From assembly GCF_003065365.1 (NCBI RefSeq), contig NZ_CP023276.1, positions 897,231 to 929,230 of the forward strand: 32,000 nt of DNA, in the 5' to 3' direction. This document shows positions 1,084 to 20,513 of the stretch, piece by piece. The notes below the pieces were generated by a model. The model worked only from the letters and a program-made list of their open reading frames with translations, had not been told where the DNA came from and did not search any database. The translations under genes were made by a program, and so were the position numbers. Each line of letters begins with the position of its first letter. The first letter of the stretch is position 1. Origin of the DNA: Polynucleobacter difficilis (GTDB lineage Bacteria > Pseudomonadota > Gammaproteobacteria > Burkholderiales > Burkholderiaceae).

Positions 1084-1219
1084 TGGAAAGCTCCTTAAAT
1101 TGAAAAATTTATTGTAATTTTTAGTAACAGTCTGAATAACAACTAAAGTTGTATTCATATGTAAATAACAACAAAATAAGGAAATGACTCGACTGAAAAA
1201 AATGAACATAGCAATATGC

Positions 1220-3514: not shown

Positions 3515-3610
3515 CCATTGAGTCTATTTAAGCAGAATCACATCAAACCCAACTTTAGTTGGAATTTATAACTAACCCACTCAATAAAAGAGAATATAAA
3601 AAATAAAAAA

Positions 3611-3632
3611 ACGAATAAACAACGAATAAACA
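3611..3632. repeat. Tandem direct repeat, 2 x 11 bp (ACGAATAAACA), in the A-rich spacer upstream of kpsC
   Basis: Read directly: acgaataaaca acgaataaaca at 3611-3632, followed by aataaaaaaa. It lies in the 158-bp gap between the glycosyltransferase stop (3673) and the kpsC start (3514). Confidence 0.7.
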
Positions 3633-3672
3633 AATAAAAAAATCACCAGAAAACACGAATATCCAGCAAGCC

Positions 3673-4638: not shown

Positions 4639-4655
4639 CAAATAGCTAATCGACC

Positions 4656-5884: not shown

Positions 5885-6749
5885 CGCTTATGTCAGATGG
5901 CGGAAATACATATCCATTCCTATTTCCTGTAATTTTGTAATAATTATTATTTTTGAGTAAATCTCCGGAGTTCTTAAAAGAGTCAGAAGGTTGGTAAATA
6001 AAATTATCCTTAAGGGCAAGATAGTAATACTGCCCAGCGATAACTCTCCCCCCGAAATTGGATCGAACAAACCTATTCGTCCATTCAACATGTCCATAGC
6101 CATATCCTCTGAAGTTAGAGTCAAAGTAGCCAAATATATTTTTTACAAGGTCTTTCTTAACTGCTGTGCACTGACCGGTCACAACTGAAAATAGGGAGGG
6201 GTTTTCCGGAGTACCCCCCCCGCCTTTTAAATATTTAATATGATCTTGATCATAAAACCATGGGGGTGCAACATTAATTTGTCCATAAAGTGAGGCCGCC
6301 ATAATCCATTTTTTTTCCCAGGAAAAATCAGCAATCTCGACATCATCCTCTATTAAGATTATTACGTCTTTGGGACTAATTTCGCTAAAGTAGTAAAGCG
6401 CCCGATTTTTGTTTCTAATTACGCCTTGATTTTGATATCCAATAACTTTAATGTTAAGTTCGGATTCTATAAATTTTGAAGTCAAACTCTTTGAATCATT
6501 ACAGATAATTAGTTCATAAGGTGTGTCGGTAAATTTTTGAATACTTTTCACGAGGTTTGACAAGTGAAAAAATCTATCGCAGGCAATCAGCGCTATTCCC
6601 AGCGTCGGAGCTGCTCCTTTGTATATTCTTTTTTCAATTATTCCATATGTTAAGTAGTGAGCTATTGGATCAACGCTAGCTTTTTTTACATCAGGATTAA
6701 GTACTAAATATTCGGCTGGATCAAAGTCATCAGGTAGTTCGGCCTTCAT
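5868..6749 (-). CDS. Glycosyltransferase, GT-A fold (GT2-like), 293 aa
   Basis: It has a GT-A-like N-terminus (GIALIACDRFFHLSNLVKSIQKFTDTPYELIICNDS) and a DxD-like IEDDVEI. It contains the C8/G8 tract. It overlaps the upstream gene by ATGA. Confidence 0.6.
   Translation of the reverse strand: MKAELPDDFDPAEYLVLNPDVKKASVDPIAHYLTYGIIEKRIYKGAAPTLGIALIACDRFFHLSNLVKSIQKFTDTPYELIICNDSKSLTSKFIESELNIKVIGYQNQGVIRNKNRALYYFSEISPKDVIILIEDDVEIADFSWEKKWIMAASLYGQINVAPPWFYDQDHIKYLKGGGGTPENPSLFSVVTGQCTAVKKDLVKNIFGYFDSNFRGYGYGHVEWTNRFVRSNFGGRVIAGQYYYLALKDNFIYQPSDSFKNSGDLLKNNNYYKITGNRNGYVFPPSDISDDLYE
6214..6221. repeat. Homopolymer C8 (G8 on the coding strand) inside the GT-A glycosyltransferase gene
   Basis: Read directly: gtaCCCCCCCCgcc. 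On the coding strand this is AAA GGC GGG GGG GGT, encoding KGGGGT. Confidence 0.9.
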
Positions 6750-7945
6750 ATAATTCCATCCATAAACATAATTAGTTTTAGGCCCTTGTAATGATTACCA
6801 GATGGGTGCTTAATCATTGACAGTATATTTTTATATTCATCTGGACAATATTTTTTCAGCAGAGATGTAAGGAAGTCGTAGTCATAACCAGCCCTATAAG
6901 CAAGGTCTCTTTTTATTACAAATGGTTGATTTCTTCTGAGGAAATAGGAAAGCCCAAGGTGTGACGGGTTGCCAATACTAATTTCTCTGTATAAATCTTG
7001 TGCAATATTTTGGTAAAAGGCTTTAGTTGCTTGATCTCTTGTAATTGCGGCGCTAATAACAATGTCCTTTGTTTCATTGCCGCCAATTCGAAATGTTTTG
7101 GCTGTATTTGAGGCAATAAGTGTTTCAGTCAGCTTTAATTGAGTCTCAGAAATAGATTTTTGAGATCTATATCTATCGGGCAGCTCACTTAGGATTTCAT
7201 TAATGCATGCAAAGTCAGTAAATTCTTTTTTTAAATCTTGGTATGTATTGATTACATTGATGCTGCAGCCCGTTTTAAGAATTTTTTTGGTTAAGCCAAC
7301 TTCACCGTTTTTAATCATGTACCGTCTTCTATCTAGTGGTAGGTATGATTCCCAAAATTTAATAAAAATAGGATCATTAATTAAACTTTCACTGCAAGAA
7401 AAGAGGAATGATTGAAAGTGAAAGTGAATTTCCTTTACTTGTGAATGCGCAATAAAGTCATATTCAGGATTTATTAATTCATTTATAAGGTCATCAATAA
7501 TTTTCTTCGGATAAATAACGCTATCATTTGCATATATTATTTTTTTCCAATCAAGTAGCGCATTCTTTTTTAAAAATAAAGTGGCATCTTTATAGCCACC
7601 AAAGTCTTTGCCTGTATTATTTCTAGTAATTACGCAATCTGCACCGACTTCTAGCAATCGCTTATCATGCTTAGGGTTTCCGTTATTCACAATAAGAAGT
7701 TGCAATCCCTTTTCTTTAAAAGATTTCAAGGCTTCTAGGGTTAAGTGCGGCAACTTATTCTTTTCAAAAACAATAAAAATAACTAAATTTTTACCGCCAT
7801 CTATGGTTTTTAATGACCCTGAAATTTTTTTGATCCTTAATGCGTAAATATAATTTCCCAATCTCAATCTTTGAGTGAGTGTGATGATGTCATCAATAAA
7901 ACGTACAAATTTTATTTTTGACTGAAAGGTAAGTTTTTTAATCAT
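6746..7945 (-). CDS. Putative glycosyltransferase (GT2/rhamnosyltransferase-like), 399 aa
   Basis: LVIFIVFEKNK..LQLLIVNNGNPKHDKRLLEVGADCVITRNNTGKDFGGYKDA..ANDSVIYP resembles the GT2 pattern (xVDNxS ... N.G.a.g.N.G ... DxD region). It has ATGA overlaps with kpsD upstream and with the next glycosyltransferase downstream. Confidence 0.5.
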   Translation of the reverse strand: MIKKLTFQSKIKFVRFIDDIITLTQRLRLGNYIYALRIKKISGSLKTIDGGKNLVIFIVFEKNKLPHLTLEALKSFKEKGLQLLIVNNGNPKHDKRLLEVGADCVITRNNTGKDFGGYKDATLFLKKNALLDWKKIIYANDSVIYPKKIIDDLINELINPEYDFIAHSQVKEIHFHFQSFLFSCSESLINDPIFIKFWESYLPLDRRRYMIKNGEVGLTKKILKTGCSINVINTYQDLKKEFTDFACINEILSELPDRYRSQKSISETQLKLTETLIASNTAKTFRIGGNETKDIVISAAITRDQATKAFYQNIAQDLYREISIGNPSHLGLSYFLRRNQPFVIKRDLAYRAGYDYDFLTSLLKKYCPDEYKNILSMIKHPSGNHYKGLKLIMFMDGII

Positions 7946-9186
7946 TTGTTTCCAATATTGCCGACGTTCACAATGGGATATACCGCTGATACCAAGATAT
8001 TGAGGAACTTTTGTAGCTCGACGGATGAGGCATTGGATACGTAGAGCACGTCTTTGTTTTTGATAGCAAAGTTTTGAGCTGTTAAGAATGCCGAGCCATC
8101 AGTGAGGTTCATACGGTAAATAACGGGCACTTTATTTTCTGCCGTTTTAATGCCGCTCTTCGCTTCTTCTGGTACTGCCTCGGGCTCTTCAAAGCGGAAG
8201 ATAAAGACACCTCTGGCATCAGCTCGGTTATCTTGTACGCCGCCTACCCTTGCCAAGGCCTGTACTAAGGAAATACCTTGAGCCTCAAAAGTGATTTCTT
8301 GATTTTGACCCGTTGCGCCTAAAGCAGTAAAGCTATAGGGCTGAAAGTAAGCCGTAATTACATCGCCCGAGGTGAGGGGGATATTTTGCTTGGGGTCTTT
8401 GATGACCGATTCCAGCGGCATGCTGTGTACTGCGCCGTTACGCGCCAACTGAATGGTGATTTTATTAATGGGTTGCTTAACGCCGCCTGAAGCGGCAATC
8501 GCATCAAGTAACTTTTCTTGTTTTGGTGAGAGCGGAATGAGCTGGCTGGTATTGACTTCGCCCACCACGGTCACTGCAGAGGTAGTGTTGCGTGTCATGC
8601 GCACCAAGACTTGGGGAAAGTTGGCCTTTCCTTTTAGTGCAGTGGTGATTTCAGTGCCTATAGCTTGCGTACTTTTACCAGCCACCTGAATGCTGCCCAC
8701 AAAGGGGATGGTGATGGTTCCATCAAGACTAACCATTTGCTCGGGCAGGGTAGTCGCTTTGGAGCTGGAGGCATTGACGATGGAGAGTGAAGCGCTCGAA
8801 GTGCTGCCAAAGAGCATGGCGGGTGAGGCTTCCCAGATATTGACTTCTAGTACATCACCGGGGCCCACCAGATTGCGATTGGCAGCCACTTTTTGAAAGA
8901 GGCTTGCAAACTCGCTGCGTTTTTGTGCTTGATTGACTTGCCTTAGGGTGCGTTCTGTAATGTCAATGAGCTGCACTGTTGGTGCTGTTGGATCCACTTC
9001 TAAACCAGAATTAGAGCTAGCCCCCACATCGCCCCGTATGGGGCCGGAGCCAGGAAGCCAAGTATTAAATAAGGCACATCCGCTTAAGGTTGATAGTAGC
9101 AAGACCCCCATAAGGACTTTGCTTACCTTGAGGGCTTGTTGGTCTGCTAGTGGGTGGTGATGGGGTAGCATGTGCATTTTTTGCAT
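7942..9186 (-). CDS. kpsD: Polysaccharide export protein KpsD/Wza family (Poly_export + SLBB), lipoprotein, 414 aa
   Basis: It has a lipobox (LLLSTLSGC), the motif GPGDVLEVNIWE characteristic of the Poly_export domain, and repeated SLBB-like segments. The ATG at 9186 overlaps the kpsT stop (TAATG). The TTG at 9195 used in the track is less likely. Confidence 0.85.
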   Translation of the reverse strand: MQKMHMLPHHHPLADQQALKVSKVLMGVLLLSTLSGCALFNTWLPGSGPIRGDVGASSNSGLEVDPTAPTVQLIDITERTLRQVNQAQKRSEFASLFQKVAANRNLVGPGDVLEVNIWEASPAMLFGSTSSASLSIVNASSSKATTLPEQMVSLDGTITIPFVGSIQVAGKSTQAIGTEITTALKGKANFPQVLVRMTRNTTSAVTVVGEVNTSQLIPLSPKQEKLLDAIAASGGVKQPINKITIQLARNGAVHSMPLESVIKDPKQNIPLTSGDVITAYFQPYSFTALGATGQNQEITFEAQGISLVQALARVGGVQDNRADARGVFIFRFEEPEAVPEEAKSGIKTAENKVPVIYRMNLTDGSAFLTAQNFAIKNKDVLYVSNASSVELQKFLNILVSAVYPIVNVGNIGNK

Positions 9187-9833
9187 TAGTGGCAATTGCC
9201 ATAAAATTGATAGGCGGCATTCATGGATGTAAACGGGTTAAGTCGCCCTTGATCTAAGACATAGGCCTGATCGCAAAATTCTTTAATGCTGGCCTGCGAA
9301 TGCGAGACCATCACAATGGCTTTGTCTTTGCGTTGATCGAGCGCATCCCTGCAGCGCTGCGTAAACCGAGAATCGCCTGCCGATAAACCCTCGTCAATCA
9401 GTAAGCAATCAAAGTCAAATGCCATTGATAAAGCAAAAGCCAAACGGCCGCGCATACCGGCTGAATAGGTTTTCACGGGTTCCAGTAAAAAAGCGCCTAA
9501 TTCAGTAAAGTCGCTGACGTATTCTTTTACCTCGCTGGGGTTAACACCGTAGATGCGGGATAAAAAATAAATGTTGTCTAAGCCCGTAAGGCTACCTTGC
9601 ATGCCGCCAGCATAGCCAAGAGGCCAGGAGATTGACATATTCGATTGAATCTCGCCAGAGTCGGGTTTTTCTAGGCCGCCAATCAGGCGAATGAGTGTGG
9701 ACTTGCCGGCGCCATTACGACCCAGAATGGCCACTTTTTGACCTGGAGTCACCGTCAAATCAATTCCCTTTAAAACAGGGAACATCCGGCCGTGCAGCGG
9801 ATAGGATTTGGCGACGTGATGGAGGGTGAGCAT
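9186..9833 (-). CDS. kpsT: Capsule ABC transporter ATP-binding protein KpsT, 215 aa
   Basis: Walker A is GRNGAGKST, the ABC signature is [12 protein letters not shown] and Walker B is [11 protein letters not shown]. The short size is typical of KpsT/CtrD. Confidence 0.9.
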
Positions 9834-9888
9834 GTGTTTTTTTGAGCGTATGGTTGAGCTTGAATTTTTCTTATTCGTGTTCTTATTT

Positions 9889-10716
9889 TTAGTCGGCCGT
9901 AATGATTTTTTTCACGCGCTGCAGAAGCAGTAGGGCGGCGCCGGATAAAAAAATATTGCAGGTGACCAAATACGAGATGGAGTATTTGGCATTAATGCCA
10001 ACACCAAAATACCCTTCGCGCAGCATCTCAACTGCATTGACCATGGGTGAGTACAGCAAAATGGTTTGCGCGGCTTCGGGCAGCCAACTCACCATCGTAA
10101 AAGCTCCGGTAAAGGGGAGAGTAAGGTACATGGCGACGTGCCAGACGCGCTCGAAGATCTCGGAGCGCTCATCCAGGTAGACTGCAAGCAGGCCCGCCGC
10201 AATCACAAACCAGCCTAGTAAAACCCAGCCCAGCACTACCTGCAGCGGGTCGACGGGCAAGCTCATAAGCCCAAGCTCTGTAAATAGAATTGAGAGGGTT
10301 ACAAAGGAAACGGAGACGGCTACCCACTCAAGCAAGGCCCTACTAATGGCAATATCAAAAATAGTCACCATGCGGTGGTAAAGCAGCGCTTTATTGGCCT
10401 GAATGCTCGAAGAGGTCCTGCCAACGCTATTGCGCCAAGCCACAATGGCTGAGTAGCCCGTGAGTGCAAAACCCGCTACCGGAATAGTACCTTTAGCGTG
10501 ACCACCCATATAGGTCCATAAAATCGTGATGCCAATCGAGAACATCATGGGCTCGACAAACATCCATAAAAAGCCAATGTTATGCCGACCAAAGCGGGTA
10601 ATCATTTCGCGCAAGATCAGTGCTTTAATTACTCGCACTTGTACTGTTGCCGCATGCAAGAAATCCGCTTGGGTAAATGGCTTACGCTGTGGTGTAGGGG
10701 TAATTAGCTCAGGCAT
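9889..10716 (-). CDS. kpsM: Capsule ABC-2 transporter permease KpsM, 275 aa
   Basis: It is a multi-pass hydrophobic protein with the ABC-2 N-terminal pattern ([24 protein letters not shown]). It sits between kpsE and kpsT. Confidence 0.85.
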
Positions 10717-11680
10717 GGTGTCGGTGCTCTTTTACGCCCGCAATAATCATCGAGGCAATGCCCCACAACACCAAACCCAATACAAAAGTAGTGATAATTC
10801 CTCGAATGCGTTTTGGCTCCAACGCTTGATCAGGTTTGCTAGGCTCGGCTACGCGCTCTAGATACAGTTGTTTTTTGATCGCCTCAATTCTGGCTTGTTC
10901 TAGGGAGGCAAACGCAGCAGCTAAATTGCGATCAGCAAAGTCTTTTTCACTGCCGAGTTGCTGAAAGACGGCGACTTGTTGCTCGGATGGGCCACTTTGC
11001 TTCTGGTTTCTGAATTTATAGATTTTGAGATTGATGTTCTCCACTTTGTTTCTAGCCAGCTCCACTTCTTTTTGCGCAAATTCCAGCATGTCTTGCCGTG
11101 CGCGCAGATTAAGGCGATTAATTAGTGCTTCACTTAATTCATTGAGTTGTTGATTCACGACATATGCGAGCTTCGGATCAAATGCACGCACGCTGAGAGT
11201 GGTGATGCCGGAGCTGGTATCGTGAGCAATGCCGACCACGTTGCTGAGATAGTATTCGTAAAAGCGCTCTAAGCTGGTATCCCAAAAACGAATTCCGGCA
11301 AAGCGATGTAGGCGGTCAATGCTGCTCTCGGAATACGCTGCTTTGAGATTCAGTTTGTCATTAAGAACCCCCAGCGCATCGCGTGACTGAATGTAGTTTT
11401 CTGCGGTAAAGGAGTCGTTTTCAGAATTGTTAAGCCCCATTTTGCCAATTACCCCTGAAAAACCACCGCTCATGCTGGCTATCGAGTCTTTGCTGGGCGA
11501 ACGTACGATAAAACGGGATTCTGACAAATAGATATTAGAAGCTATAAAGGTGAAATAAATGCTTGCAATAAATGTAGGCGCAATAACCAAGCAAAGAAAC
11601 AATGTATTTTGACGAATCCATTGCAAACTTTTAGTCCCTATTGTTAGCTGAATATTGGCGTGATGAATTTTTGATCTCAC
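10709..11680 (-). CDS. kpsE: Capsule export inner-membrane adaptor KpsE (PCP-3 family), 323 aa, GTG start
   Basis: There is an N-terminal transmembrane segment followed by YLSESRFIVRSP, a long coiled-coil region and a C-terminal transmembrane segment. It overlaps kpsM by 8 nt. Confidence 0.8.
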   Translation of the reverse strand: MRSKIHHANIQLTIGTKSLQWIRQNTLFLCLVIAPTFIASIYFTFIASNIYLSESRFIVRSPSKDSIASMSGGFSGVIGKMGLNNSENDSFTAENYIQSRDALGVLNDKLNLKAAYSESSIDRLHRFAGIRFWDTSLERFYEYYLSNVVGIAHDTSSGITTLSVRAFDPKLAYVVNQQLNELSEALINRLNLRARQDMLEFAQKEVELARNKVENINLKIYKFRNQKQSGPSEQQVAVFQQLGSEKDFADRNLAAAFASLEQARIEAIKKQLYLERVAEPSKPDQALEPKRIRGIITTFVLGLVLWGIASMIIAGVKEHRHHA

Positions 11681-12101
11681 AGTGCATTACTTCTTTTTCG
11701 GGGGGGGGGGAGTTTTTGTACAGCTCTGCTATTTCTAAGATTGTTTGTTGCGCGTTTGAATTGAGTTGATCAAATAAATGCAAAAGTTTTGTTGAGTCTG
11801 AGGACCCGCTACTATTATTCTTTGGAGATACTGATGGAGTATTAGATGTATTGCTGTAATGTGGTCCATCAAGTACATCGACATTTAAATTGAGCCATAC
11901 AACTAAAGTGCGCATTCTGGCGGCATGGGGCATATTGACGCCCAGCAGCCATTTGCGAATTGTCTCGACAGAGACTGGCTCTAACTCGCGTGAAATGAGG
12001 GTAAAGTCCCTCGCGATTTTTGCGCAACTTGGCACTTTTCCGTAATGGGCTATCAAGGAACGCCTGAATTCTTTTGCAAATGCGTTTTTAAGTTCAACCA
12101 C
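11631..12101 (-). CDS. Putative HTH (XRE-like) DNA-binding protein, first gene of the kps transcription unit, 156 aa, GTG start
   Basis: The N-terminus reads SCAKIARDFTLISRELEPVSVETIRKWLLGVNMPHAARMRTLVVWLNLNV, a helix-turn-helix pattern. It is followed by a Ser/Asn-rich linker. The C-terminal tail depends on the length of the C11 tract. Confidence 0.5.
   Translation of the reverse strand: MVELKNAFAKEFRRSLIAHYGKVPSCAKIARDFTLISRELEPVSVETIRKWLLGVNMPHAARMRTLVVWLNLNVDVLDGPHYSNTSNTPSVSPKNNSSGSSDSTKLLHLFDQLNSNAQQTILEIAELYKNSPPPEKEVMHCEIKNSSRQYSANNRD
11700..11710. repeat. Homopolymer G11 (C11 on the coding strand) at the 3' end of the HTH gene, 20 nt upstream of the kpsE start
   Basis: Read directly: ttctttttcGGGGGGGGGGGagttt. 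The coding strand reads AAC TCC CCC CCC CCC GAA, encoding NSPPPE. Confidence 0.9.
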
Positions 12102-12317: not shown

Positions 12318-12485
12318 CTAACTAACTTTTGCCAACTCAATTTCCCCAGCTTGAATCTTTTGCCTTGCTCGTTCCGCTTTAACTGCTGCTTGTGCTCGTT
12401 TGGCCTGATCTTTCAGAGCTTTGATTCGTGCCTGTGCTGGGCTTAATGGTTTGGATGAGGATGATTGGAATTCATAAAATCGCAT
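12318..12485 (-). CDS. Small basic coiled-coil protein, 55 aa (below the track threshold)
   Basis: My translation is MRFYEFQSSSSKPLSPAQARIKALKDQAKRAQAAVKAERARQKIQAGEIELAKVS. It lies 29 nt downstream of the DUF6876-like gene on the same strand. Confidence 0.3.
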   Translation of the reverse strand: MRFYEFQSSSSKPLSPAQARIKALKDQAKRAQAAVKAERARQKIQAGEIELAKVS

Positions 12486-12514
12486 ACTGGTATTTAGCTT
12501 CTGGCTTTTAGTTA

Positions 12515-12880
12515 CTAATACTCAGTAGGTAGCATTAAGATCCAGCGTTCACTATCCCAACAGGCGTAGAGTGCTATTGAATCGAGTGGAAAGGTCGTAT
12601 AGGCAATGTTCTGCGTGGCTAGTACGTTGCCATTGCCATCATCGAGTAATAGCTCAGCTTTACCGTTATAGACAGTTAACTTGCAACTGACAAATACTTC
12701 GTTTTTAGGTAAGTGCAGAATATGACTGGTAATCGCATCCATCAGCCAGTAGCAGGCCGCTTCTTGTGCTAGAAACTGGGCACCATCCGTTAGAAAGACT
12801 TTAGGCCATAGAGGGTAGTAGTACTGCGTTCCATAAAATTGCTCCAAATGATTCAAAAGCTGGGTTTTAGATAGATTCAT
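12515..12880 (-). CDS. DUF6876-like protein of plasmids/ICEs, 121 aa
   Basis: FYGTQYYYPL..FLTDGAQFLAQEAACYWLMDAITSH and the terminal ILMLPTEY match my memory of the DUF6876 pattern (F.GTE.YY.H..., TDGV.YLAE.AGAYWL.DAI, ...LLLPSEY). This is unverified without an HMM search. Confidence 0.55.
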   Translation of the reverse strand: MNLSKTQLLNHLEQFYGTQYYYPLWPKVFLTDGAQFLAQEAACYWLMDAITSHILHLPKNEVFVSCKLTVYNGKAELLLDDGNGNVLATQNIAYTTFPLDSIALYACWDSERWILMLPTEY

Positions 12881-12898
12881 TTTTGCTATGCCTCATAG

Positions 12899-13429
12899 TC
12901 ATTTATTTATGAATTGGGTTTGCGCAATGGAATCAGTCAAAACCTTGCTCTTTTGACTCGTTTTCGGGATTTTCAATTCAAAGCGGCTGCGCAGCTGTAG
13001 GCTGGCTGCCTCTATTGCTTCATCAAATGTACCCATGTCAGCTTCGCGCTTTAAGAGTTCTAGTACTTCAATTACATTCTCTAAATTAGTAGCCTCTACA
13101 GCAGTTTTGCCATTAGCCAGCTCTAAAACCTTGCTGCCGTAAAACACATTGATACACAGTGCTCCCGTGCTGCTGATAAACCACCAGGGTTTGATGCGCT
13201 TGGGCTTTTCAACGCTCTTGATATTGCCCTCTAGATCTTTAACGTTTTTGTAGCGCTTTACGACAAAGTCTTTGCCGTTATGTTTTGCTTTGGCTAATTC
13301 CAGCTGCTCCCATAATTTGCTAATCAGCTTGTTTCTACGCTGCACTATAGGGGGTTGGTTTTTAGGCCGTTTTGCATCGGTCAATTTAAGGGTATTTAGG
13401 TTCTCTAGCGTTGCCATCGTGCTCTCCAT
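12899..13429 (-). CDS. Hypothetical protein of mobile elements, 176 aa
   Basis: It is a clean ORF. A GGAGAG RBS precedes the second ATG at 13417. The protein is Lys-rich (..RRNKLISKLWEQLELAKAKHNGK..KPKRIKPWWF..). I can name no domain with confidence. Confidence 0.5.
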   Translation of the reverse strand: MESTMATLENLNTLKLTDAKRPKNQPPIVQRRNKLISKLWEQLELAKAKHNGKDFVVKRYKNVKDLEGNIKSVEKPKRIKPWWFISSTGALCINVFYGSKVLELANGKTAVEATNLENVIEVLELLKREADMGTFDEAIEAASLQLRSRFELKIPKTSQKSKVLTDSIAQTQFINK

Positions 13430-13815
13430 CAGTTGCGTTAAAAATGCCTGGACAACACAACAATATGATCAGAAAACCCCTTTGGACAACCGAAAAAAGG
13501 CCATTATTGAGCTCTTTTTAGGCCTTAGAACATATATGTACTTTTTTTACCGATCTTTATGTTCAAGCTAAATAAATTCATAGAAACAAGTAAAACAGTA
13601 AGGCTTAAAGGTTGGCACGCCGAAGGTAATAGTGCTGCGAAACCCGTTCTGATGTGTGACGGTACGCAATTCAGATTTCTTACTATCTGGCCTCATTGCA
13701 CTACCCAAGACCCTGGCTGTTTTGGATGCTTTAAACGACGCCCCTGTGTGGCAGTACCGTTTGCGATGTTGTATGAGTTGGTAGCGTAGAAATACGTGAA
13801 TGTAGGCTAAATTGT

Positions 13816-13834
13816 CGAATTAATGATTAATTCG
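13816..13834. repeat. Perfect 19-bp palindrome CGAATTAAT-G-ATTAATTCG in the 760-bp non-coding stretch
   Basis: Read directly. It has 9-bp arms and a 1-nt centre. Confidence 0.8.
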
Positions 13835-14189
13835 TCTAGGCTGAAAGTGAGTGGGAGCGCCAATGAAATAAACCCACAAGCTAGTTTGCAAGGGTTCCTG
13901 ATATAGACCGCAAATTAGCTGCGTATGACGGCACGTAATAGGTGATAGCAATACCTACCTATCTTGCTTCTTGCAAGTTGTGTGTATATCAGTTGAAAAC
14001 CTCAGTGAAAGAGGCTTGCATGAGTTGAGCCCTTTATCAGGGCTTGGCTTGTGCTTCCTAGTGAAAGATCTTGAAATTCAATATTTCAAATCATAATTTT
14101 AAAAAACATTTAAAAGAAGAAAAATGCGATGAGCGGAAGCGAAGAGCAGGCTAACGCAGTTAGCTTTAAAACACATCAATCAAAAGAGC

Positions 14190-14867
14190 TTAAGTAGATT
14201 GCTGCTCTAAAAAACCACGCCAACAATAGCTACCATATGATTTTTCATTTTCCTTGGTTCTCTTTTGATCAATACAGTCTTTAAGTAGAATTTTTGAATA
14301 AAACCATTTTTTCCCATTCCAATATGCATAGCCACTATGCTTAGGTGATTGGTAATCCATATCGGATATTTCATAGATACCAGTTCTTAATGGATTTATA
14401 TCACTTGGGAACCAAATAGTTTTTTTGCTGTATTCGTATTTCTTTTTTGTTTCCGTATCTTCTTCAAGATAGGTGTGCATTTTGTAGTACTCAATATCCC
14501 TGAGTTCAATAATGCCCTCGGCTGCGTCGTCCGTGTTCCATGTCCCTGAGAACATACAGTATGCAATCGTATTTCTAAAGTCTTGAATGAATTGTTCTTT
14601 TTCATCTGAATCAACAAATTCAAATAGAGAGCTAACACTGGGTATAGAAAAGTAATCATCCGCATCGCCATCTTCAGAAAATTCCTCACCGTTCTCGTAG
14701 GCAGAATATTTTCTCGCCGCTGTTGGATACAGTTCGGCCATGATCGAGTCGAGATTTTGATGAATTTCTTCATGAATTAATCCAAAACCTTCAAGCTGAT
14801 TAAGAAGGCTATAAAGCAGCTCAATATTTTTATTTGGGCTATTTGTATATCGTGGGTGCTGTGGCAT
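14190..14867 (-). CDS. Highly acidic hypothetical protein, 225 aa
   Basis: An ATG with a GGAGAG-type RBS (ctctcct at 14871-14877). The N-terminal two thirds are rich in Asp/Glu (EEFSEDGDADDYF..EFVDSDEKEQF..). The C-terminus is Trp/Tyr-rich (YAYWNGKKWFYS..SYCWRGF). Confidence 0.6.
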   Translation of the reverse strand: MPQHPRYTNSPNKNIELLYSLLNQLEGFGLIHEEIHQNLDSIMAELYPTAARKYSAYENGEEFSEDGDADDYFSIPSVSSLFEFVDSDEKEQFIQDFRNTIAYCMFSGTWNTDDAAEGIIELRDIEYYKMHTYLEEDTETKKKYEYSKKTIWFPSDINPLRTGIYEISDMDYQSPKHSGYAYWNGKKWFYSKILLKDCIDQKRTKENEKSYGSYCWRGFLEQQST

Positions 14868-14983
14868 TTTCTCTCCTAATCTAGCTTTTTATTTCGCCAT
14901 AATATGCAAATACTACATCAGCTGATAATCTGATAATTAACTGATTTTCTAAGACTAAATTCCTAGTGTCTATTTATTATTTC

Positions 14984-15148
14984 GTGGCAGAAATGCCACA
15001 AATTGCCATCAAATTCCATTGTTTTAGCACTCAACACTTTTTTCACATTTGATGTTGAGTGCTTGTAACCACTTGAAAATCATACGGTAAATTTTCAGCC
15101 AAATTCACTTGTAAAACCCATCAATCTGAGTGTATTTGTGGCCATTTC
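14984..15148. repeat. Inverted-repeat set upstream of the small recombinase
   Basis: All read directly. GCCACAAAT (14995-15003) and ATTTGTGGC (15134-15142) form a perfect 9-bp inverted repeat. It extends to GAAATGCCACAAAT versus ATTTGTGGCCATTTC (14 of 15, one 1-nt indel). There is also a local palindrome GTGGCA-gaaa-TGCCAC at 14984-14999. Confidence 0.75.
15026..15063. repeat. Perfect 11-bp inverted repeat AGCACTCAACA-N16-TGTTGAGTGCT, nested between the outer inverted repeats
   Basis: Read directly. No flanking T-run on either strand, so it is not an obvious terminator. Confidence 0.8.
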
Positions 15149-15213
15149 CGGTAGGAATATGGCAGTTTTGAATACAAAATATAAGTACATAGATGGCAAA
15201 ACAAGGAGGGACC

Positions 15214-15780
15214 ATGGCACAAGCAAAAACATTAAGTGATCAAGAGCTGCAAAGGGCTTTAGATTACACAGCAACTACTAAAGCAGCAGTACGTAATCGC
15301 GCAATACTGCTGTTAACGCACTGGGCGGGTATGCGTATAGGAGAAGTAGCGAGTGTGCGCTACAGCGACGTTTTAAGCAGCGACAACCAGGTTTTAAGTG
15401 AGATCCGCTTGGCAGCCAATCAAACTAAGGGCTCTAAAAGTAGGGTGGTACTCTTATCGGAGCGTATGCAACAGGAGCTTGCCATCTATATCGCAGCTTA
15501 TCCACCTAAGGATATGAATCGTCCACTCTTTCCCACACAAAGGGCTTTGGGATTTACTCCTAATACTCTTACTCACGTAATTAACGGCTTATACCGTCAA
15601 GCAGGGCTTAATGGCGCTACTAGTCATAGTGGCCGTCGTGGCTTTTTGACACGATTAAGTGAGAAAGGGGTTTCAGTTAGGGTAATGATGCAGTTAGCAG
15701 GCCATAGTCAAATGTCTACAACACAGCGTTATATTGATACAAGGCCGGATATCCTGCGTAATGCAGTAGAGCTAATTTAG
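15214..15780 (+). CDS. Small tyrosine recombinase (catalytic domain only, FimB/FimE-like size), 188 aa
   Basis: AAGGAGG lies 5 nt upstream of the ATG at 15214. Catalytic residues are in order: AGMRIGE (Arg), HSGRRGF (His-x-x-Arg), LAGHSQMSTTQRY (His ... Tyr). There is no N-terminal core-binding domain. Confidence 0.8.
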   Translation: MAQAKTLSDQELQRALDYTATTKAAVRNRAILLLTHWAGMRIGEVASVRYSDVLSSDNQVLSEIRLAANQTKGSKSRVVLLSERMQQELAIYIAAYPPKDMNRPLFPTQRALGFTPNTLTHVINGLYRQAGLNGATSHSGRRGFLTRLSEKGVSVRVMMQLAGHSQMSTTQRYIDTRPDILRNAVELI

Positions 15781-16679
15781 CGGTATTTGGCTTTTTCTCT
15801 TTTAGCCCAGGCCGTTTGTTTAGCTAAGACTTGATGAAACTCATCCGCATTAAATTTAACTGCATAAGGATGCTTGGCATTACTGGGAAAAATACCCCGT
15901 GCAGCATTTTCAGCAACCATATTGGCGTTAAGTAGTGCACGACTAGTGACGATCGTGAGTGTTTGCCTTGCCTGTGAAGTTAGAGTAGTTTTTTTAGTAG
16001 CTTTAGGGTCAACTTCATTGCTATAGGTTTTACTAACTTGTGCTTCTGCACCAATGCGCCATAGCTCACTTTCATTGTGCAGTGCTCTTAGCCATAATGT
16101 CTTAATACCGATCTTTAAGGTTTGTAAGTGCGTTTTCTTTTGTATGAGCTGGTATTGAGCTTTTGATTGCGTTGGCTTATTGCTAATACTGTTAGATAGT
16201 ATTTGGGTAATTTCGGTGATCAAGCGGCTACGTTTAATATTCAGTGGAACAGCTATCAGCAAGGTATCGGGTTCGCCTGTCTCTGCCCAGTCATTGCGAA
16301 TGTACTTTTCAACATTTTCTAAGACGCTCTTTACTTCTTTATTGCTTGTTAATTTAGAAATGGATTTAGGGCTGGGCCTTTTGGTAGGCGTACCCATTAA
16401 TGCAAGACCAGTATTAATCCACCAGGGCTTAAAGAGTTTCTGTTGGAGATTGCCAAAATCATCAAATACCCTCAGTACCTGGTCGAAGTCTTTTGGCAGA
16501 CGCTGCCTATCTAGTGCCGAGAGTTTGCCTGTCCGATGGAGCCTAGCAAGTTCATAACTAGGGCTGAGTCTCAGGTATTCAAACCAATATTGATAGAGCA
16601 CCTGCATTTCCGCATAGCGATTTTTGCCAACAAAGTCTTTGGCTTTAATACGCAGTTGTGGAGGGGTCTTAAGGCTCAT
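15777..16679 (-). CDS. Hypothetical protein, 300 aa
   Basis: It is a clean ATG ORF. It is divergent from the ATPase operon and overlaps the recombinase gene tail-to-tail by 4 nt. The N-terminal YQYWFEYLRLSPSYELA is faintly like the W.WEFLRRNP.Y motif of DUF6499/DUF2285 mobile-element regulators. That resemblance is weak. Confidence 0.5.
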   Translation of the reverse strand: MSLKTPPQLRIKAKDFVGKNRYAEMQVLYQYWFEYLRLSPSYELARLHRTGKLSALDRQRLPKDFDQVLRVFDDFGNLQQKLFKPWWINTGLALMGTPTKRPSPKSISKLTSNKEVKSVLENVEKYIRNDWAETGEPDTLLIAVPLNIKRSRLITEITQILSNSISNKPTQSKAQYQLIQKKTHLQTLKIGIKTLWLRALHNESELWRIGAEAQVSKTYSNEVDPKATKKTTLTSQARQTLTIVTSRALLNANMVAENAARGIFPSNAKHPYAVKFNADEFHQVLAKQTAWAKREKAKYR

Positions 16680-16783
16680 AATTATTAACAGAATAGCATA
16701 AAAATTATCTAGTTAATCTATGAAATAGTTAATATATGAGATCCTTCAAATACAGCAATTTCGCTGTGTATAAGGAGCTAATA

Positions 16784-17635
16784 ATGTTAGAAACGATCAC
16801 AAAAATTAATGAATCAATTAACTATGCTGCTGTGGCAGATATCCTGCAAGATCCCATCTTTAAGCCAAGTCTTCGTAAGCGCATTGATGAGGTGCGTGAA
16901 TATAACGAAGATGCTCAAGAGTTTTTGCGTGACGTAGTCGCTGGTGCACATCGTGCGGCTATTATCTACGGCCCTCCGGGCATGGGGAAGACCCATGCAA
17001 TTGTTGAGGCACTTAATAGTGCCGGCCTACAAGAACTTAATGATTTCATTATTGCAAGAAGTCATACAACCCCTGGAATGTTGTATGTATTACTCTATCT
17101 GATGCGTAAGCACGGCAAGTATGTCATTTTAGATGATTGCGATGGCATTATTGCTGACGAAACTGGCCTTAATTTATTAAAAGGGGCTACCGATCCAACT
17201 TATCGTTGGGTGGGATGGTCATCTACAAAAGAGTTGCGCAATCCAACTAATGGAAAATCGTTGCCCAGTAGTTTTGAATTTAATGGCACAGTGATTGTGT
17301 CTACAAACGTGCGTTTAGCCAGCGGACGGGGACGTATTGCTAACCACATGGATGCTCTGCGTAGTCGTTCCGCACCATTTTCTTTAAATTTAGAGAGTCG
17401 CGAGGATCAGTATGCTCAGATATTTCATATGATCGTTGAAAAGGACTATCTTGCAGCTGATGTAAATACTGAAATTAAAAATGAGCAGAAAGTTGAGCTT
17501 CTCAAGTTTTTATTAGAAAACTTGGATATACCTCGTAGACTTGATCTTCGCCTGCCTCAGCACATCGCTCGAGCCATGAAGGCAAAGCCTAATAATTGGC
17601 AGCGTCAAGCTCGTCGCTTCTTGGAGGCTGCATAA
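16784..17635 (+). CDS. AAA+ ATPase of the clamp-loader-like clade, 283 aa
   Basis: AAGGAG lies 6 nt upstream of the ATG at 16784. Walker A is IIYGPPGMGKTH, Walker B is YVILDDCDG, sensor-1 is TVIVSTN, and MDALRSRS is an SRC-like arginine-finger box as in RFC/DnaX-type loaders. Confidence 0.75.
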   Translation: MLETITKINESINYAAVADILQDPIFKPSLRKRIDEVREYNEDAQEFLRDVVAGAHRAAIIYGPPGMGKTHAIVEALNSAGLQELNDFIIARSHTTPGMLYVLLYLMRKHGKYVILDDCDGIIADETGLNLLKGATDPTYRWVGWSSTKELRNPTNGKSLPSSFEFNGTVIVSTNVRLASGRGRIANHMDALRSRSAPFSLNLESREDQYAQIFHMIVEKDYLAADVNTEIKNEQKVELLKFLLENLDIPRRLDLRLPQHIARAMKAKPNNWQRQARRFLEAA

Positions 17636-18387
17636 TGACCAGATCAAAAGAGCGCAGTATTGAGTGGCTGTTATCGCTAAGTCCTGCGCAATTTAATTCA
17701 GCTACATTTGCTCCAGGGAATACAAAGTGGCGCGCTTCATTATCAGATGAGCAAAAAGCTGAATTTGCTCGTAAGTTAAGTATCGCTAATAAGGGCAAAG
17801 TTCGTAGTCAGGAAACACGCAACAAGATTAGCTTGGCAAAGCTAGGAAAACCTAATCCAAGAAAGCCTGGATGGGTAGCTCCACCGTCGCCATTGAAAGG
17901 TAAACCTGGGGTTGTCCATACTGAAGCAACTAAGCTAAAAATCTCAATAGCCAATAAAGGTCGCCTTAATGGCATTAAGCGTGGCCCACAAAGTGATCAA
18001 ACTAAGGAGAAGTATTTACTCAGTAAAATTGAAGCTGGCTTAACTACGAGGTGTCAAACACCATTGGGTATTTTTAGAACTCGTGCTGAGGCTGCTAGAG
18101 CTCATGGCGTTGATCCTGTTTCAATATCAAATTGGATGAGGAAAGAAAAGCCTGGATTTTTTTACTTAGATAAAAAAGATATTGACAAATGTAAGCGAGA
18201 TCGTGAAGAGTGGCTAAACCATTTAGCATCTAAACCAAGCTTAAGAAGAGGTCGCTCTGTCAAAACGCCATTAGGAGATTTTCCCAGTATTCGTTCAGCC
18301 GCAAAAGCTATCGGAATTGATCAATCAACACTGTCCGATAGAATTAAGCGAGACTGGAATGGTTATGCGTTTATTAATAAAAAGTAA
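17635..18387 (+). CDS. DNA-binding protein built from NUMOD3 repeats and two IENR1/NUMOD1-type HTH modules, with no nuclease domain, 250 aa
   Basis: The ATG overlaps the ATPase stop (TAATG), with GGAGG upstream. The repeats are KLSIANKGKVRSQETRNKISLAKLGK and HTEATKLKISIANKGR. The HTH-like modules are TPLGIFRTRAEAARAHGVDPVSISNWMRK and TPLGDFPSIRSAAKAIGIDQSTLSDRIKR. No GIY-YIG or HNH motif is visible. Confidence 0.7.
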   Translation: MTRSKERSIEWLLSLSPAQFNSATFAPGNTKWRASLSDEQKAEFARKLSIANKGKVRSQETRNKISLAKLGKPNPRKPGWVAPPSPLKGKPGVVHTEATKLKISIANKGRLNGIKRGPQSDQTKEKYLLSKIEAGLTTRCQTPLGIFRTRAEAARAHGVDPVSISNWMRKEKPGFFYLDKKDIDKCKRDREEWLNHLASKPSLRRGRSVKTPLGDFPSIRSAAKAIGIDQSTLSDRIKRDWNGYAFINKK

Positions 18388-18389
18388 CA

Positions 18390-18863
18390 TTAAGCAAATC
18401 CAGCCAAACTTAACTGTTTTTCAACATCCCTAAAGGCCAACTCCGTGTTGGCCTTTTTTACATCCTTTGTACTTGGGGACACAAAGACGTATTTGCCTTG
18501 TGTAGTCACTTTGATCTCCACCAGGCCTAGCTGCGTATTAAATTGGTAGATGGCTGTAAATCGCGGAACTAGTTCACCTTTGTAGGACTTATGCGTGACT
18601 GACAACTTGGCTTTGGCTGCCTTTGGCAAGGTCCAATAATCATTCAAATCCGTATCGCAGCGTTTAATTAAAGTCTTCACTGCCGCTAGGGCGTCTTTCT
18701 TGGATAACTTTTTGAGCTGCGGCAGTTCCTTGGTTAAATCCTCACCAGCTTCTAGTCTGGTTTTAACCTGCTTAAAGTGCGACAAATCACAAGCTCGCTC
18801 TATGCTTTGTTTTAAAGCGCCATCGGCTTTACGTTCAAAGAAGGTCTGAATAAATGGAGTCAT
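18390..18863 (-). CDS. Hypothetical protein, 157 aa, downstream of the integrase on the same strand
   Basis: It is a clean ATG ORF, Lys-rich, with no recognisable motif. Confidence 0.45.
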   Translation of the reverse strand: MTPFIQTFFERKADGALKQSIERACDLSHFKQVKTRLEAGEDLTKELPQLKKLSKKDALAAVKTLIKRCDTDLNDYWTLPKAAKAKLSVTHKSYKGELVPRFTAIYQFNTQLGLVEIKVTTQGKYVFVSPSTKDVKKANTELAFRDVEKQLSLAGFA

Positions 18864-18912
18864 CAGATCACCATAGCCGTGGGATATCTTTGAAAGTAGT
18901 GCGCTTTTGTCA

Positions 18913-20295
18913 TTAACTTACTTTCGCCAGTGATTTATTGAGCTCGTCTTTGAGCTCTTTAGTGGCTTTGGCATTGGCTTCATTTAGTGGCAAATAGATG
19001 CCAGTAGTTGCCCCTACTAAGCTCATCACATCGCTACGTACTGGACTTGGGTTCATGTAGCGCAAAATCTCTTCACTGGCAGCAGTCTTATCATTTGGAA
19101 TGCTGCCTGCCAATTGCTCAGCAATCATCAGTGGTTTGAGATGACTGTAATGACGCTCAATCATCAAAATACTCGTACCCATCTGATTAGCGAGCTGCCC
19201 AAAACTCATGCCTTCTAATACTCGCTGCGTAGCGTAGTAGTGGCGCAGGCTATACAAACTTCTTGATTTGCCATCTTTATCGCTTTTGCTCAAACCAGCA
19301 GCCTCTAAGCAATCAGCAAAAGCGCCCACTAAGTCATAGGGGCGATTGCCATCGCGCATTCTAAAAAGCAGCTTATCTTCCTTTTTTGCTACCAACTCTT
19401 CTAAAGTCAGTTTGGAGTAAGCGGGTTGAAATTCACGCAGCTTGTCTAGCAAAGGCCAAAGCTCGTTTCTAGCAATCAGTTGTCTACTGCCACGTTTACC
19501 TTGTGGCAAGGTGATGTGAATAACTCGCATCGTAGGCTTTTGAATAAATTCAATATTCTTCCACTTAAGCTCTTTAGTCTCGGTGCCTGGGCGAACACCG
19601 GTACAGGCAATGAAGGTGATGTACAAGCCCAGTAGCTCGCGAAGCTGCTGACTCTTGACATTCTTAGTGGCTTGTATCCAACCTCTAATAAATGTCTGCA
19701 GCTCAATCAATTCATCGGTACTAAAGATCCCACGAGTCGCATTAGCTTCACCGGTATTTTTAAGGCTAGGGCGCTGACTCTCAGTCATGTACTTCTTTTC
19801 AACTGCGTAATCAAATACGTAATTGAGGGCAGCATTATGGTTATTTTGGGTTGAAGCCTTAAGCTCATAGCCAACCTTTTCCGTGCGCCAACGGTGAAAG
19901 TCCGAGACGACATCAGGCGTTATGCGGTCGATATTGAACTTGCCAAGGAAGGGGGTTAAGTAGCTATCAATGGCACGGTAATAGTCGGCATAACTCTTCT
20001 TGCCGGTACCGGCTTTGACCTCGGCCTTTAGGCGGTTGCTCACTATTTCAGCAACGGCTTTGAACTTCTTGCTAACGACAGCCAGTCCTCGTTTATCAAG
20101 CACTCTAGCTTCGTGATAAATGTCCTCGGCAATCTGTGTTGCTTCAGTTAAATCAGCAGTTCCAGTCGTTTTACGGTACCAAGTTTTACTAGACCCGATT
20201 TTGTAATGCACTTGCCAAAAGCCCGAACGATTTCGACGAAAAAGGCGCAATTCCTTTTTACGCAGTATGATGCTAGAGTCCTGACTGGCTGGCAC
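18913..20295 (-). CDS. Tyrosine integrase (phage-integrase family), 460 aa, GTG start
   Basis: There is an N-terminal arm/SAM-like region (FRRNRSGFWQVHYKIG) and a catalytic domain (CTGVRPGTE ... LRHYYATQRV ... MGTSILMIERHYSH). It sits next to the tRNA-Asn 3' end. Confidence 0.85.
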   Translation of the reverse strand: MPASQDSSIILRKKELRLFRRNRSGFWQVHYKIGSSKTWYRKTTGTADLTEATQIAEDIYHEARVLDKRGLAVVSKKFKAVAEIVSNRLKAEVKAGTGKKSYADYYRAIDSYLTPFLGKFNIDRITPDVVSDFHRWRTEKVGYELKASTQNNHNAALNYVFDYAVEKKYMTESQRPSLKNTGEANATRGIFSTDELIELQTFIRGWIQATKNVKSQQLRELLGLYITFIACTGVRPGTETKELKWKNIEFIQKPTMRVIHITLPQGKRGSRQLIARNELWPLLDKLREFQPAYSKLTLEELVAKKEDKLLFRMRDGNRPYDLVGAFADCLEAAGLSKSDKDGKSRSLYSLRHYYATQRVLEGMSFGQLANQMGTSILMIERHYSHLKPLMIAEQLAGSIPNDKTAASEEILRYMNPSPVRSDVMSLVGATTGIYLPLNEANAKATKELKDELNKSLAKVS

Positions 20296-20353
20296 TTTGC
20301 TGTTTTTATAGGGTATTAATTTATAGCAATAGTAGCATCAAACTTGAAATTGA

Positions 20354-20375
20354 AGTGCGCTAAGAGTGCGCTAAG
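20354..20375. repeat. Tandem direct repeat, 2 x 11 bp (AGTGCGCTAAG), between the integrase start and the tRNA terminator
   Basis: Read directly: agtgcgctaag agtgcgctaag. Confidence 0.8.
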
Positions 20376-20388
20376 TTATTTTAAGGGT

Positions 20389-20419
20389 AAAAAAATAGCC
20401 CGCATCGCTGCAGGCTATT
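20389..20419 (-). terminator. Intrinsic terminator downstream of tRNA-Asn
   Basis: The reverse strand reads AATAGCCTGCA-GCGA-TGCGGGCTATT followed by TTTTT. This is an 11-bp stem (one G-U pair), a GNRA tetraloop and a T-run, 19 nt after the tRNA CCA end. Confidence 0.75.
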
Positions 20420-20437
20420 GATTTTGCTACTAATTCT

Positions 20438-20513
20438 TGGCTCCTCGACCTGGGCTCGAACCAGGGACCTACGGATTAACAGTCCGGCGCTCTACCGACT
20501 GAGCTATCGAGGA
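20438..20513 (-). tRNA. tRNA-Asn (anticodon GUU), 76 nt, CCA encoded
   Basis: The reverse strand reads TCCTCGATAGCTCAGTCGGTAGAGCGCCGGACTGTTAATCCGTAGGTCCCTGGTTCGAGCCCAGGTCGAGGAGCCA. The acceptor stem is TCCTCGA/TCGAGGA, the anticodon loop is CTGTTAA and the T-loop is GGTTCGAGCC. Confidence 0.95.

Follow-up and report, generated by a model that had tools for sequence, protein, structure and literature searches.

The stretch of Polynucleobacter difficilis DNA analysed here (assembly GCF_003065365.1, contig NZ_CP023276.1, positions 897,231 to 929,230; 32,000 nucleotides in all, hereafter the window) carries, within an integrative island of about 8.1 kb, a gene for an AAA+ ATPase of 283 amino acids (aa) that is followed by a gene for a 250-aa DNA-binding protein without a nuclease, here called the partner. 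We find that the ATPase and its nuclease-free partner form a genuine, co-conserved and translationally coupled pair, and that the ATPase, as judged from its sequence, is a short form of the phage T4 NrdC.10 / phrog_1250 AAA+ family. The pair is best described as a new split variant of this catalogued but uncharacterised phage ATPase family, set in a new island backbone. We propose that the two proteins may constitute a two-part, DNA-targeted AAA+ machine that belongs to the core equipment of mobile elements and would most likely act in their replication or processing, a statement to which, taken whole, we give a probability of about 0.45.

The two genes had been picked out in an earlier reading of the window (hereafter the original prediction), and the open reading frames (ORFs), the ATPase motifs, the TAATG overlap, the GGAGG site and the TAGTTAAT repeats described there all lie where it placed them (Table 1). 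Conservation of the pairing was assessed in 8 genome, 80 metagenome and 80 IMG/VR viral loci, which were scanned with custom hidden Markov models (HMMs). ATPases were clustered at 90% identity, seven proteins of ~311 aa just below the length cut were reassigned to the long forms, and a downstream ORF was counted as tightly coupled if it overlaps the ATPase gene or begins at most 14 nt past its stop. By this definition, 45 of the 46 clusters of short-form ATPases have a tightly coupled downstream ORF, which in 35 of the 46 encodes NUMOD3 and/or helix-turn-helix (HTH) modules; a downstream ORF with such modules follows one of the 40 clusters of long-form ATPases. Co-occurrence in other genomes, a check proposed along with the original prediction, is borne out by these counts. 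In most related loci with short-form ATPases the two genes likewise overlap in TAATG fashion or are separated by no more than 14 nt, some of the coupled partners missed by the custom HMMs weakly match a homing-endonuclease PHROG, and none of the genes coupled to the 46 non-redundant short forms has a detectable nuclease domain. The pairing is kept where the ATPase is just 31% identical to that of the window. A literature search returned no paper describing the ATPase-partner pair.

The two proteins also co-vary. The partner carries an N-terminal motif specific to the ATPase clade (aa ~8-22 in the window, SIEWLLSLSPAQFNS), and across loci the motif classes found in the first ~20 residues follow the ATPase clade, with ATPase identities of 54-100, 42-52, 39-44, 32-37 and 25-33% that overlap little between classes. 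The number of DNA-binding modules varies freely, from 0 to 10 NUMOD3 units and from 0 to 4 HTH modules. This pattern suggests that the N-terminal motif may be a docking peptide for the ATPase. A marine phage-like contig (L015, 8823-10131) has one ATPase gene followed by three tandem partner paralogues that share one N-terminal motif class and differ in their DNA-binding parts, which raises the possibility that a single motor works with several targeting subunits.

All 250 residues of the partner can be assigned, to the N-terminal motif, about four NUMOD3-like units, a first HTH module, a charged linker and a second HTH module. The protein matches Pfam NUMOD3 (E=5.8e-9, 36.2 bits, cut-off 20.4) and Pfam NUMOD1 (23.6 bits, cut-off 22.8), in agreement with its earlier description as NUMOD3 repeats with two IENR1-like HTH modules. 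It is strongly basic (53 Lys+Arg against 23 Asp+Glu) and contains three His and two Cys in total. Its PHROG and NCBIfam endonuclease matches are confined to DNA-binding parts; they include phrog_314, annotated as homing endonuclease (E=2e-12), and the NCBIfam group I intron endonuclease, of which model positions 79-206 alone, the DNA-binding part, are matched. No Pfam, NCBIfam or PHROG match extends over a catalytic region, and the partner has no GIY-YIG, HNH, LAGLIDADG or PD-(D/E)xK motif and no conserved His/Cys/acidic motif. The residues that are invariant across 18 aligned homologues all fall in the assigned modules, and a nuclease Pfam domain is present in none of the 24 homologues at 52% identity or more, PF01541 or PF01844 appearing in distant matches alone (P0265-P0267, E>1e-8), which are genuine GIY-YIG or HNH enzymes. 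The description of the protein as nuclease-less thus survives a search for a cryptic nuclease in the partner and in these 24 close homologues. The partner has the NUMOD3 and HTH modules of homing endonucleases of the I-TevI/I-BmoI type, strung together in a similar linear array; unlike these enzymes, it lacks a catalytic domain, has a new N-terminal motif that tracks the ATPase clade, and is neither free-standing nor intron-borne but encoded by the second gene of an ATPase operon.

The ATPase carries the Walker A, Walker B, sensor-1, arginine-finger and sensor-2 elements listed in Table 1. Invariant across 46 ATPase homologues are K69, D117/D118, N175, R195 and a sensor-2-like R256; within the arginine-finger motif S194 and R195 are conserved, the residue that follows is S, T, A, C or M, with Cys in few homologues, and RuvB has similar motifs. 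An AlphaFold2 (AF2) model with a predicted local distance difference test (pLDDT) score of 89.4 has a standard AAA+ core and a helical lid, and in this model the chain ends at residue 283 after a five-helix lid region, with no collar domain. An insert of 33 residues, modelled with two short strands, is placed between helix alpha3 and the sensor-1 strand. The pre-sensor-1 hairpin of RuvB-, MoxR- and MCM-type ATPases occupies the same position, and in the AAA+ classification clamp loaders are without a pre-sensor-1 insert.

The original prediction had called the protein clamp-loader-type, and it does share with the clamp loaders (RFC, gamma/delta') the P-loop AAA+ core and has an LRSR(S/C) motif resembling their SRC box, but this identity is not supported and was rejected. 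Its best NCBIfam matches, RFC large subunit (21.9 bits, cut-off 280) and Hda (16.6 bits, cut-off 194.8), are very weak and far under their cut-offs; the insert is present and the collar missing; and in a Foldseek search with the model, NorQ/CbbQ (MoxR type) and RuvB rank top and RFC lower, at template modelling (TM) scores of 0.45-0.53. Pfam gives generic AAA matches, all sub-threshold. In profile searches of the PDB run with the ATPase, the partner and the product of the divergent 300-aa gene discussed below, matches were at the level of the P-loop or absent; those of the ATPase were P-loop-level alone (E at least 0.0035). From its predicted fold, the ATPase may be described as belonging to a distinct AAA+ family with RuvB/MoxR-like features. 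RuvB shares the position of the pre-sensor-1 insert and the (L)R-S/D-R arginine-finger motif and is among the best fold matches, but at a TM score of ~0.5 and ~15% identity, and the ATPase lacks the C-terminal winged-helix domain of RuvB. The RuvA-RuvB system may work alike, as a separate DNA-recognition protein with a small AAA+ ATPase, but the partner is unrelated to RuvA and its proposed target is a specific sequence, not a Holliday junction.

Placement in the T4 NrdC.10 family comes from several searches. Against PHROGs, the ATPase matches phrog_1250 (function unknown) over residues 44-277 with E=1.1e-43, the match beginning at position 92 of the 327 in the profile. A tblastn search returned 1272 phage records, mostly from T4-like phages of Escherichia, Klebsiella, Vibrio and Acinetobacter, together with jumbo phages, and the phage homologues that bear a gene name are called nrdC.10. 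The match to T4 nrdC.10 itself has E=2e-11 at 87% coverage, and the T4, KVP40 and PA5oct proteins are 27-33% identical to the window ATPase. Among 1.84 billion representative proteins, a profile search gave 1776 clusters at E of 1e-30 or below, mostly of 300-400 aa, and the profile of the ATPase scores long forms at E~1e-50 to 1e-70. A search for near or distant DNA matches to phages found none. PF27228 is recorded for some homologues. The statement in the original prediction that no named system has this composition stands for the pair, which is unmatched in PADLOC, Pfam and NCBIfam, but not for the ATPase, which lies within a very large phage family. A 2006 paper gave nrdC.10 just a marginal AAA match, and our literature search found no other paper that mentions the gene.

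Between the window ATPase and the T4 NrdC.10 family the AAA+ core and lid are homologous, with Walker A and B, sensor-1, Arg-finger, sensor-2 and the insert all shared. The difference lies at the N-terminus. The long forms (310-530 aa) have an N-terminal extension of 50-230 residues (~50-100 in T4, KVP40 and PA5oct), which the window ATPase replaces with a helical lead-in of ~40 residues, and the short form has the coupled partner instead. By eye from sequence, the N-terminal domains of most long forms look beta-rich and that of Rhodobacter phage RcRudolph looks winged-helix, and one long-form representative carries a DUF4096 HTH (IS4/5-type) fused ahead of the ATPase. The long forms thus carry an N-terminal domain where the short forms have the partner, a hint of fusion. 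We also considered the N-terminus of the partner as a fission product of the long-form N-terminal domain, and rejected this: similar "NG...WSxHK" strings occur in PA5oct, but their spacing differs and there is no HMM support. Other members of the family have three tandem NrdC.10-like AAA modules in one chain of 800-970 aa; these and the DUF4096 fusion are found among P0277, P0278, P0320 and P0374. Such triple-module relatives are consistent with assembly of the ATPase into a ring.

The closest genome loci are those of Polynucleobacter species and of Burkholderiaceae metagenome-assembled genomes, and the gene order of the island (DUF6876, DUF6641, a variable slot, 195-aa recombinase, 300-aa protein, ATPase, partner, 157-aa protein and 460-aa integrase) is repeated in dozens of freshwater contigs. 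The pair is kept beside the integrase in dozens of islands, and a separate slot varies. Related islands share the integrase/tRNA-Asn junction, and in most of them the small recombinase is 84-96% identical; their ATPases fall in clades ~80% or ~31% identical to the window ATPase, and the partner and the 300-aa protein switch independently of each other. Pfam, PHROG and NCBIfam scans of the island proteins found no primase/replicase, terS, capsid or Sid-like gene, and the earlier description of a tRNA-associated integrase island without structural or conjugation genes is confirmed. A search for a direct repeat (11 nt or longer) of the 3' end of tRNA-Asn that would mark the far end of the island found none, and an Rfam scan of the island returned the tRNA alone. 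The IMG/VR viral contigs hold no copy of the island above 57% ATPase identity, which is weak evidence against packaging.

This arrangement matches the tycheposon-like layout, in which an inward-facing integrase stands at the tRNA end with an optional small replication module beside it and a cargo region (bioRxiv 10.1101/2020.12.28.424599). The island shares with tycheposons and phage-inducible chromosomal islands (PICIs) a size of ~8 kb at a tRNA, the inward integrase, an adjoining small conserved module, a variable cargo slot and the absence of capsid and conjugation genes. Its 460-aa tyrosine integrase beside tRNA-Asn corresponds to a further trait of PICIs and satellites, an integrase at a specific attachment site. 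It differs from them in having no primase, helicase, excisionase/AlpA, terminase small subunit or capsid gene, and in a backbone of uncharacterised families (the 300-aa protein, DUF6641, DUF6876 and the catalytic-domain-only recombinase).

The pair is also present in contigs with terminase, portal, capsid or tail genes, where it lies among small early genes. Among the 133 neighbouring ORFs at these phage loci, the commonest PHROGs are terminase large subunit, DNA methyltransferase, portal and scaffold, and no polymerase, primase or helicase family is found in the 25 commonest. Neither the 300-aa gene nor the small recombinase is near the pair in the phage loci. In T4, mobD adjoins a long form without a partner.

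We infer from these data a physical interaction between the two proteins, ring formation, sequence-specific binding and a replication role. The partner would recognise a specific DNA site through its NUMOD3 clamps and its IENR1/NUMOD1 HTH units, and its first ~20 residues would dock onto the 283-aa ATPase. The recruited ATPase would assemble as a ring and drive, with ATP, the remodelling of the DNA at the site or movement along it. The island pair would in this way initiate or assist the replication or processing of the element after its excision, and in phages with the pair an equivalent job may be done on the infecting genome. A role in the life cycle of the element is favoured over defence because the pair belongs to the backbone and not to the cargo, and because it also occurs in phage early regions. 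Replication or processing in particular is favoured by the backbone position beside the integrase, as in tycheposon- and PICI-like elements, and by the phage early regions, which show no other replication gene among their commonest neighbours. A motor that is conserved while its DNA-binding part varies would suit a set of initiators with different origin specificities, and among the three roles suggested in the original prediction that of a loader/initiator fits best. We are fairly confident that the pair is a DNA-targeted adaptor and motor serving the element itself; replication initiation as its specific role is a tentative proposal, with the odds somewhat against it. It is doubtful, though conceivable, that arrays of homing-endonuclease modules have been domesticated as swappable, fast-evolving targeting subunits for a ring-shaped AAA+ motor of the NrdC.10 family, firing the element's own origins or jamming competitors.

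Several observations weigh against a replication or processing machine. T4-like phages with the long form own a complete replisome, and we know of no report of nrdC.10 being essential; essential initiation of replication is therefore an improbable ancestral function for the family. The ATPase is all but missing from a set of 72,556 plasmids and is thus not a general replicon initiator. Its fold matches, at the TM scores given above, are generic, with no initiator-clade protein or SF3 helicase in the top 50, and a search for iterons or tandem repeats near the pair that could form an origin gave nothing convincing. The promoter palindrome described below is island-specific and not partner-specific. 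A part in conflict or defence would likewise be compatible with how fast the partner turns over, and a type I restriction operon immediately precedes the pair at one locus, with hsdR 19 nt upstream.

A hypervariable partner with a conserved ATPase is a pattern typical of conflict genes, and the pair might instead serve anti-phage or inter-element interference, the partner recognising the DNA of a rival phage and the ATPase blocking replication or packaging without cutting, with the phage copies acting against rivals. The presence of the pair in integrase islands, the locus next to hsdR, another locus in which the pair is close to a methyltransferase and a UvrD helicase, and homologues in phages and islands alike are all consistent with this. 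However, the pair stands in the conserved backbone and outside the variable slot, it has no effector domain (nuclease, toxin or membrane protein), and long forms abound in lytic phages of the T4-like and jumbo kinds. A PADLOC scan of the island, also proposed along with the original prediction, gave no meaningful match to a defence model: in PADLOC-DB v2 the ATPase scores best against MkoA and IetA, with ~17 bits confined to the P-loop region, the partner reaches just E=0.03 against the HEase model, and the 300-aa, 157-aa, 225-aa, DUF6641 and DUF6876 proteins have no match. Interference is therefore unlikely in our judgement, and the pair is probably not a defence system. A related suggestion is that the partner acts as a decoy, occupying homing sites and shielding them from cleavage, and its modules are indeed those of GIY-YIG and HNH homing endonucleases. 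This would leave the obligate coupling to an ATPase and the co-varying N-terminal motif unexplained; moreover, nuclease domains are never seen in the partner's close homologues and no homing endonuclease gene stands beside the pair in the loci inspected, and we regard a decoy as extremely improbable.

Two other alternatives keep the partner as a targeting subunit and give the ATPase a different task. As a transcription switch, the partner would bind promoters or operators of the element and the ATPase would remodel the complex for later genes or turn over a repressor. HTH modules are classic regulator parts, phage pairs lie in the early region, with terminase and other late genes a few kb downstream, and the island operon has conserved operator-like palindromes and repeats; these elements, however, track the 300-aa allele or the backbone and not the partner type, and the partner gene is exchanged among islands whose backbone sequence is otherwise shared. 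With neither a sigma-54 activator signature nor a regulator-family match above threshold, we consider such a switch less likely again than interference. Targeting of recombination, in the manner of TnsC/TnsD of Tn7, would have the partner mark a site and the ATPase recruit the 195-aa recombinase, which lacks a core-binding domain. The small recombinase consists of the catalytic domain alone, lies less than ~3 kb from the pair in nearly all island loci with enough flank, and is also near the pair in one locus without the 300-aa gene. Phage copies of the pair, however, are without such a recombinase. A specific recombinase contact is also unlikely because the recombinase holds steady at 84-96% identity in most islands while the ATPase moves between clades of 31% identity and the partner is wholly replaced, and this explanation is thus very improbable.

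The original prediction had counted the divergent 300-aa gene as a member of the system. This part did not hold, since the gene is missing from phage pairs, lies beside an unrelated AAA+ gene in Rhodobacterales and shuffles independently; it is a separate backbone gene of the island, outside the ATPase pair. Its family has at least 500 members, without a Pfam domain, in Beta- and Alphaproteobacteria, among them Polynucleobacter, Polaromonas and Rhodobacterales, and is marked by the invariant motifs SPSYELA, DDFGDV and ENAARGxFP. The protein was not found in sequenced phages and is virtually missing from plasmids. One family member, in Pseudophaeobacter, faces an operon with an unrelated AAA+ ATPase, a DUF6641-like gene and a 188-aa recombinase. 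The AF2 model (pLDDT 92.1) is all-alpha, and a fold search with it gave no match in the PDB or BFVD (best E 2.6 and 0.31), so the family appears to have a fold not yet seen in either collection. Speculatively, the protein is possibly a regulator of the divergent operon. At three loci (L002, L020, L025) an extra Cys-rich gene of ~130 aa, lying between the 300-aa gene and the ATPase, heads the ATPase operon, and at L014 and the Rhodobacterales locus L010 a conserved 270-282-aa protein takes that operon-first position.

The spacer between the 300-aa and ATPase genes is divergent, as originally described, but measures 104 bp from the real ATPase start; the 56 bp given before corresponds to the longest ORF. 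The two TAGTTAAT repeats are present within it, but as parts of a 16-bp tandem, TAGTTAATCTATGAAA / TAGTTAATATATGAGA. This tandem is found where the 300-aa protein is 69-89% identical and is absent at 30-48%, whatever the type of ATPase or partner; it tracks the allele of the 300-aa gene and was rejected as a binding site of the partner. Immediately ahead of the first gene in the ATPase operon stands an ACAGC-N6-GCTGT palindrome. It occurs 27 times across all loci, against 1.6 expected, and 23 of the 27 occurrences are just upstream of the ATPase operon, all at island-type loci and none at phage-type loci. Because it stands in islands with unrelated partners and is absent from phage loci, the palindrome was likewise rejected as the partner binding site.

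The variable slot spans 1-2.8 kb in related loci (L004-L092) and holds mostly one or two small genes that differ per island; it resembles the hotspots of phage satellites, and ten cargo-slot genes from related islands have no Pfam or PADLOC match. The 195-aa recombinase, whose gene is convergent with the 300-aa gene and overlaps its 3' end by 4 nt, lacks a core-binding domain. It is probably functional as it stands, since it is conserved at 84-96% identity in most related islands and at a size of 188-195 aa. Upstream of it, a non-coding region is conserved in the Polynucleobacter-type islands inspected. It contains a GTGGC-N6-GCCAC palindrome with a variable spacer (14984-14999), a 10-11-bp inverted repeat, ACTCAACA...TGTTGAGT, with a variable loop (~15026-15064), and a conserved box, GGTAGGAAT(A/T)TGGCAG, and has no Rfam match; candidate roles are those of an origin or transfer origin, of a recombination site or of an operator. 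In the stretch that separates the integrase start from tRNA-Asn, a perfect 11-bp tandem of two AGTGCGCTAAG units (20354-20375) is a possible arm-type binding site of the integrase. Just beyond the left end of the island, a run of ~11 G (11690-11711) within a 156-aa ORF (11631-12101, minus strand), where it encodes SPPPE, could be a slippage-prone tract or an assembly weak point. The island is adjoined by a capsule-type polysaccharide cluster (391-11680) with a low-GC core of 32-37% at 5-8 kb and with genes for Capsule_synth, glycosyltransferases, a methyltransferase, an RgpF-like protein, Poly_export/SLBB and an ABC-2 transporter pair, which looks like a second, separate flexible region.

Table 1. 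Positions of the ATPase-partner pair, its motifs and the surrounding island in the window (position 1 is the first nucleotide of the window).
Feature	Position (nt)	Strand	Description
AAA+ ATPase gene	16784-17635	+	283 aa; AAGGAG ribosome-binding site 16772-16777
Walker A	16970-16993		GPPGMGKT, aa 63-70
Walker B	17126-17143		ILDDCD, aa 115-120
Pre-sensor-1 insert	17189-17287		aa 136-168 (AF2 model)
Sensor-1	17300-17308		STN, aa 173-175
S-R arginine-finger motif	17357-17371		LRSRS, aa 192-196
Sensor-2 Arg	within 17543-17557
Translational coupling signal	17623-17637	+	GGAGG 17623-17627; TAATG 17633-17637, in which the ATPase stop TAA (17633-17635) shares 17635 with the partner ATG (17635-17637)
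Partner gene	17635-18387	+	250 aa; NUMOD3/HTH DNA-binding modules
Partner NUMOD3-like units	17806-17847, 17920-17961, 17992-18033	+	one more degenerate unit upstream
Partner IENR1/NUMOD1-like HTH modules	18058-18165, 18265-18372	+	TPxGxF...HTH, aa 142-177 and 211-246
Divergent control region	16680-16783	.	16-bp tandem repeat 16710-16741; ACAGC-N6-GCTGT palindrome 16752-16767
300-aa ORF	15777-16679	-	divergent from ATPase gene
195-aa tyrosine recombinase	15193-15780	+	catalytic domain only
157-aa backbone protein	18390-18863	-	conserved beside integrase
460-aa tyrosine integrase	18913-20295	-	inward-facing at the tRNA end of the island
tRNA-Asn (GTT)	20438-20513	-	integration target; right end of island
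DUF6876 backbone gene	12515-12880	-
DUF6641 backbone gene	12899-13429	-
Variable cargo slot	13430-15192	.	here with 225-aa ORF 14190-14867 (-)
Structured conserved non-coding region	~14960-15192	.	after the cargo ORF, upstream of the 195-aa recombinase gene
Integrative island, ~8.1 kb	12347-20437	.	left limit inferred from start of homology to related islands

Polynucleobacter-like freshwater bacteria commonly carry the small integrative element whose backbone is defined by these analyses, which also indicate that the DNA-binding domains of homing endonucleases may have been reused, without the nuclease, as the adaptor of a motor protein. The split form of NrdC.10, with its recognisable and swappable DNA-recognition half, offers an experimental handle on a conserved gene of the T4 family. 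If arrays of homing-endonuclease modules have indeed been domesticated in the way considered above, the pair would represent an unrecognised class of sequence-directed, non-nucleolytic DNA machine that is common to phages and a new family of small tRNA-integrated islands, and would provide a first function for T4 nrdC.10. Should the pair turn out to act in replication or interference, it would also supply a new hallmark gene set for spotting satellites and tycheposon-like elements in environmental genomes.

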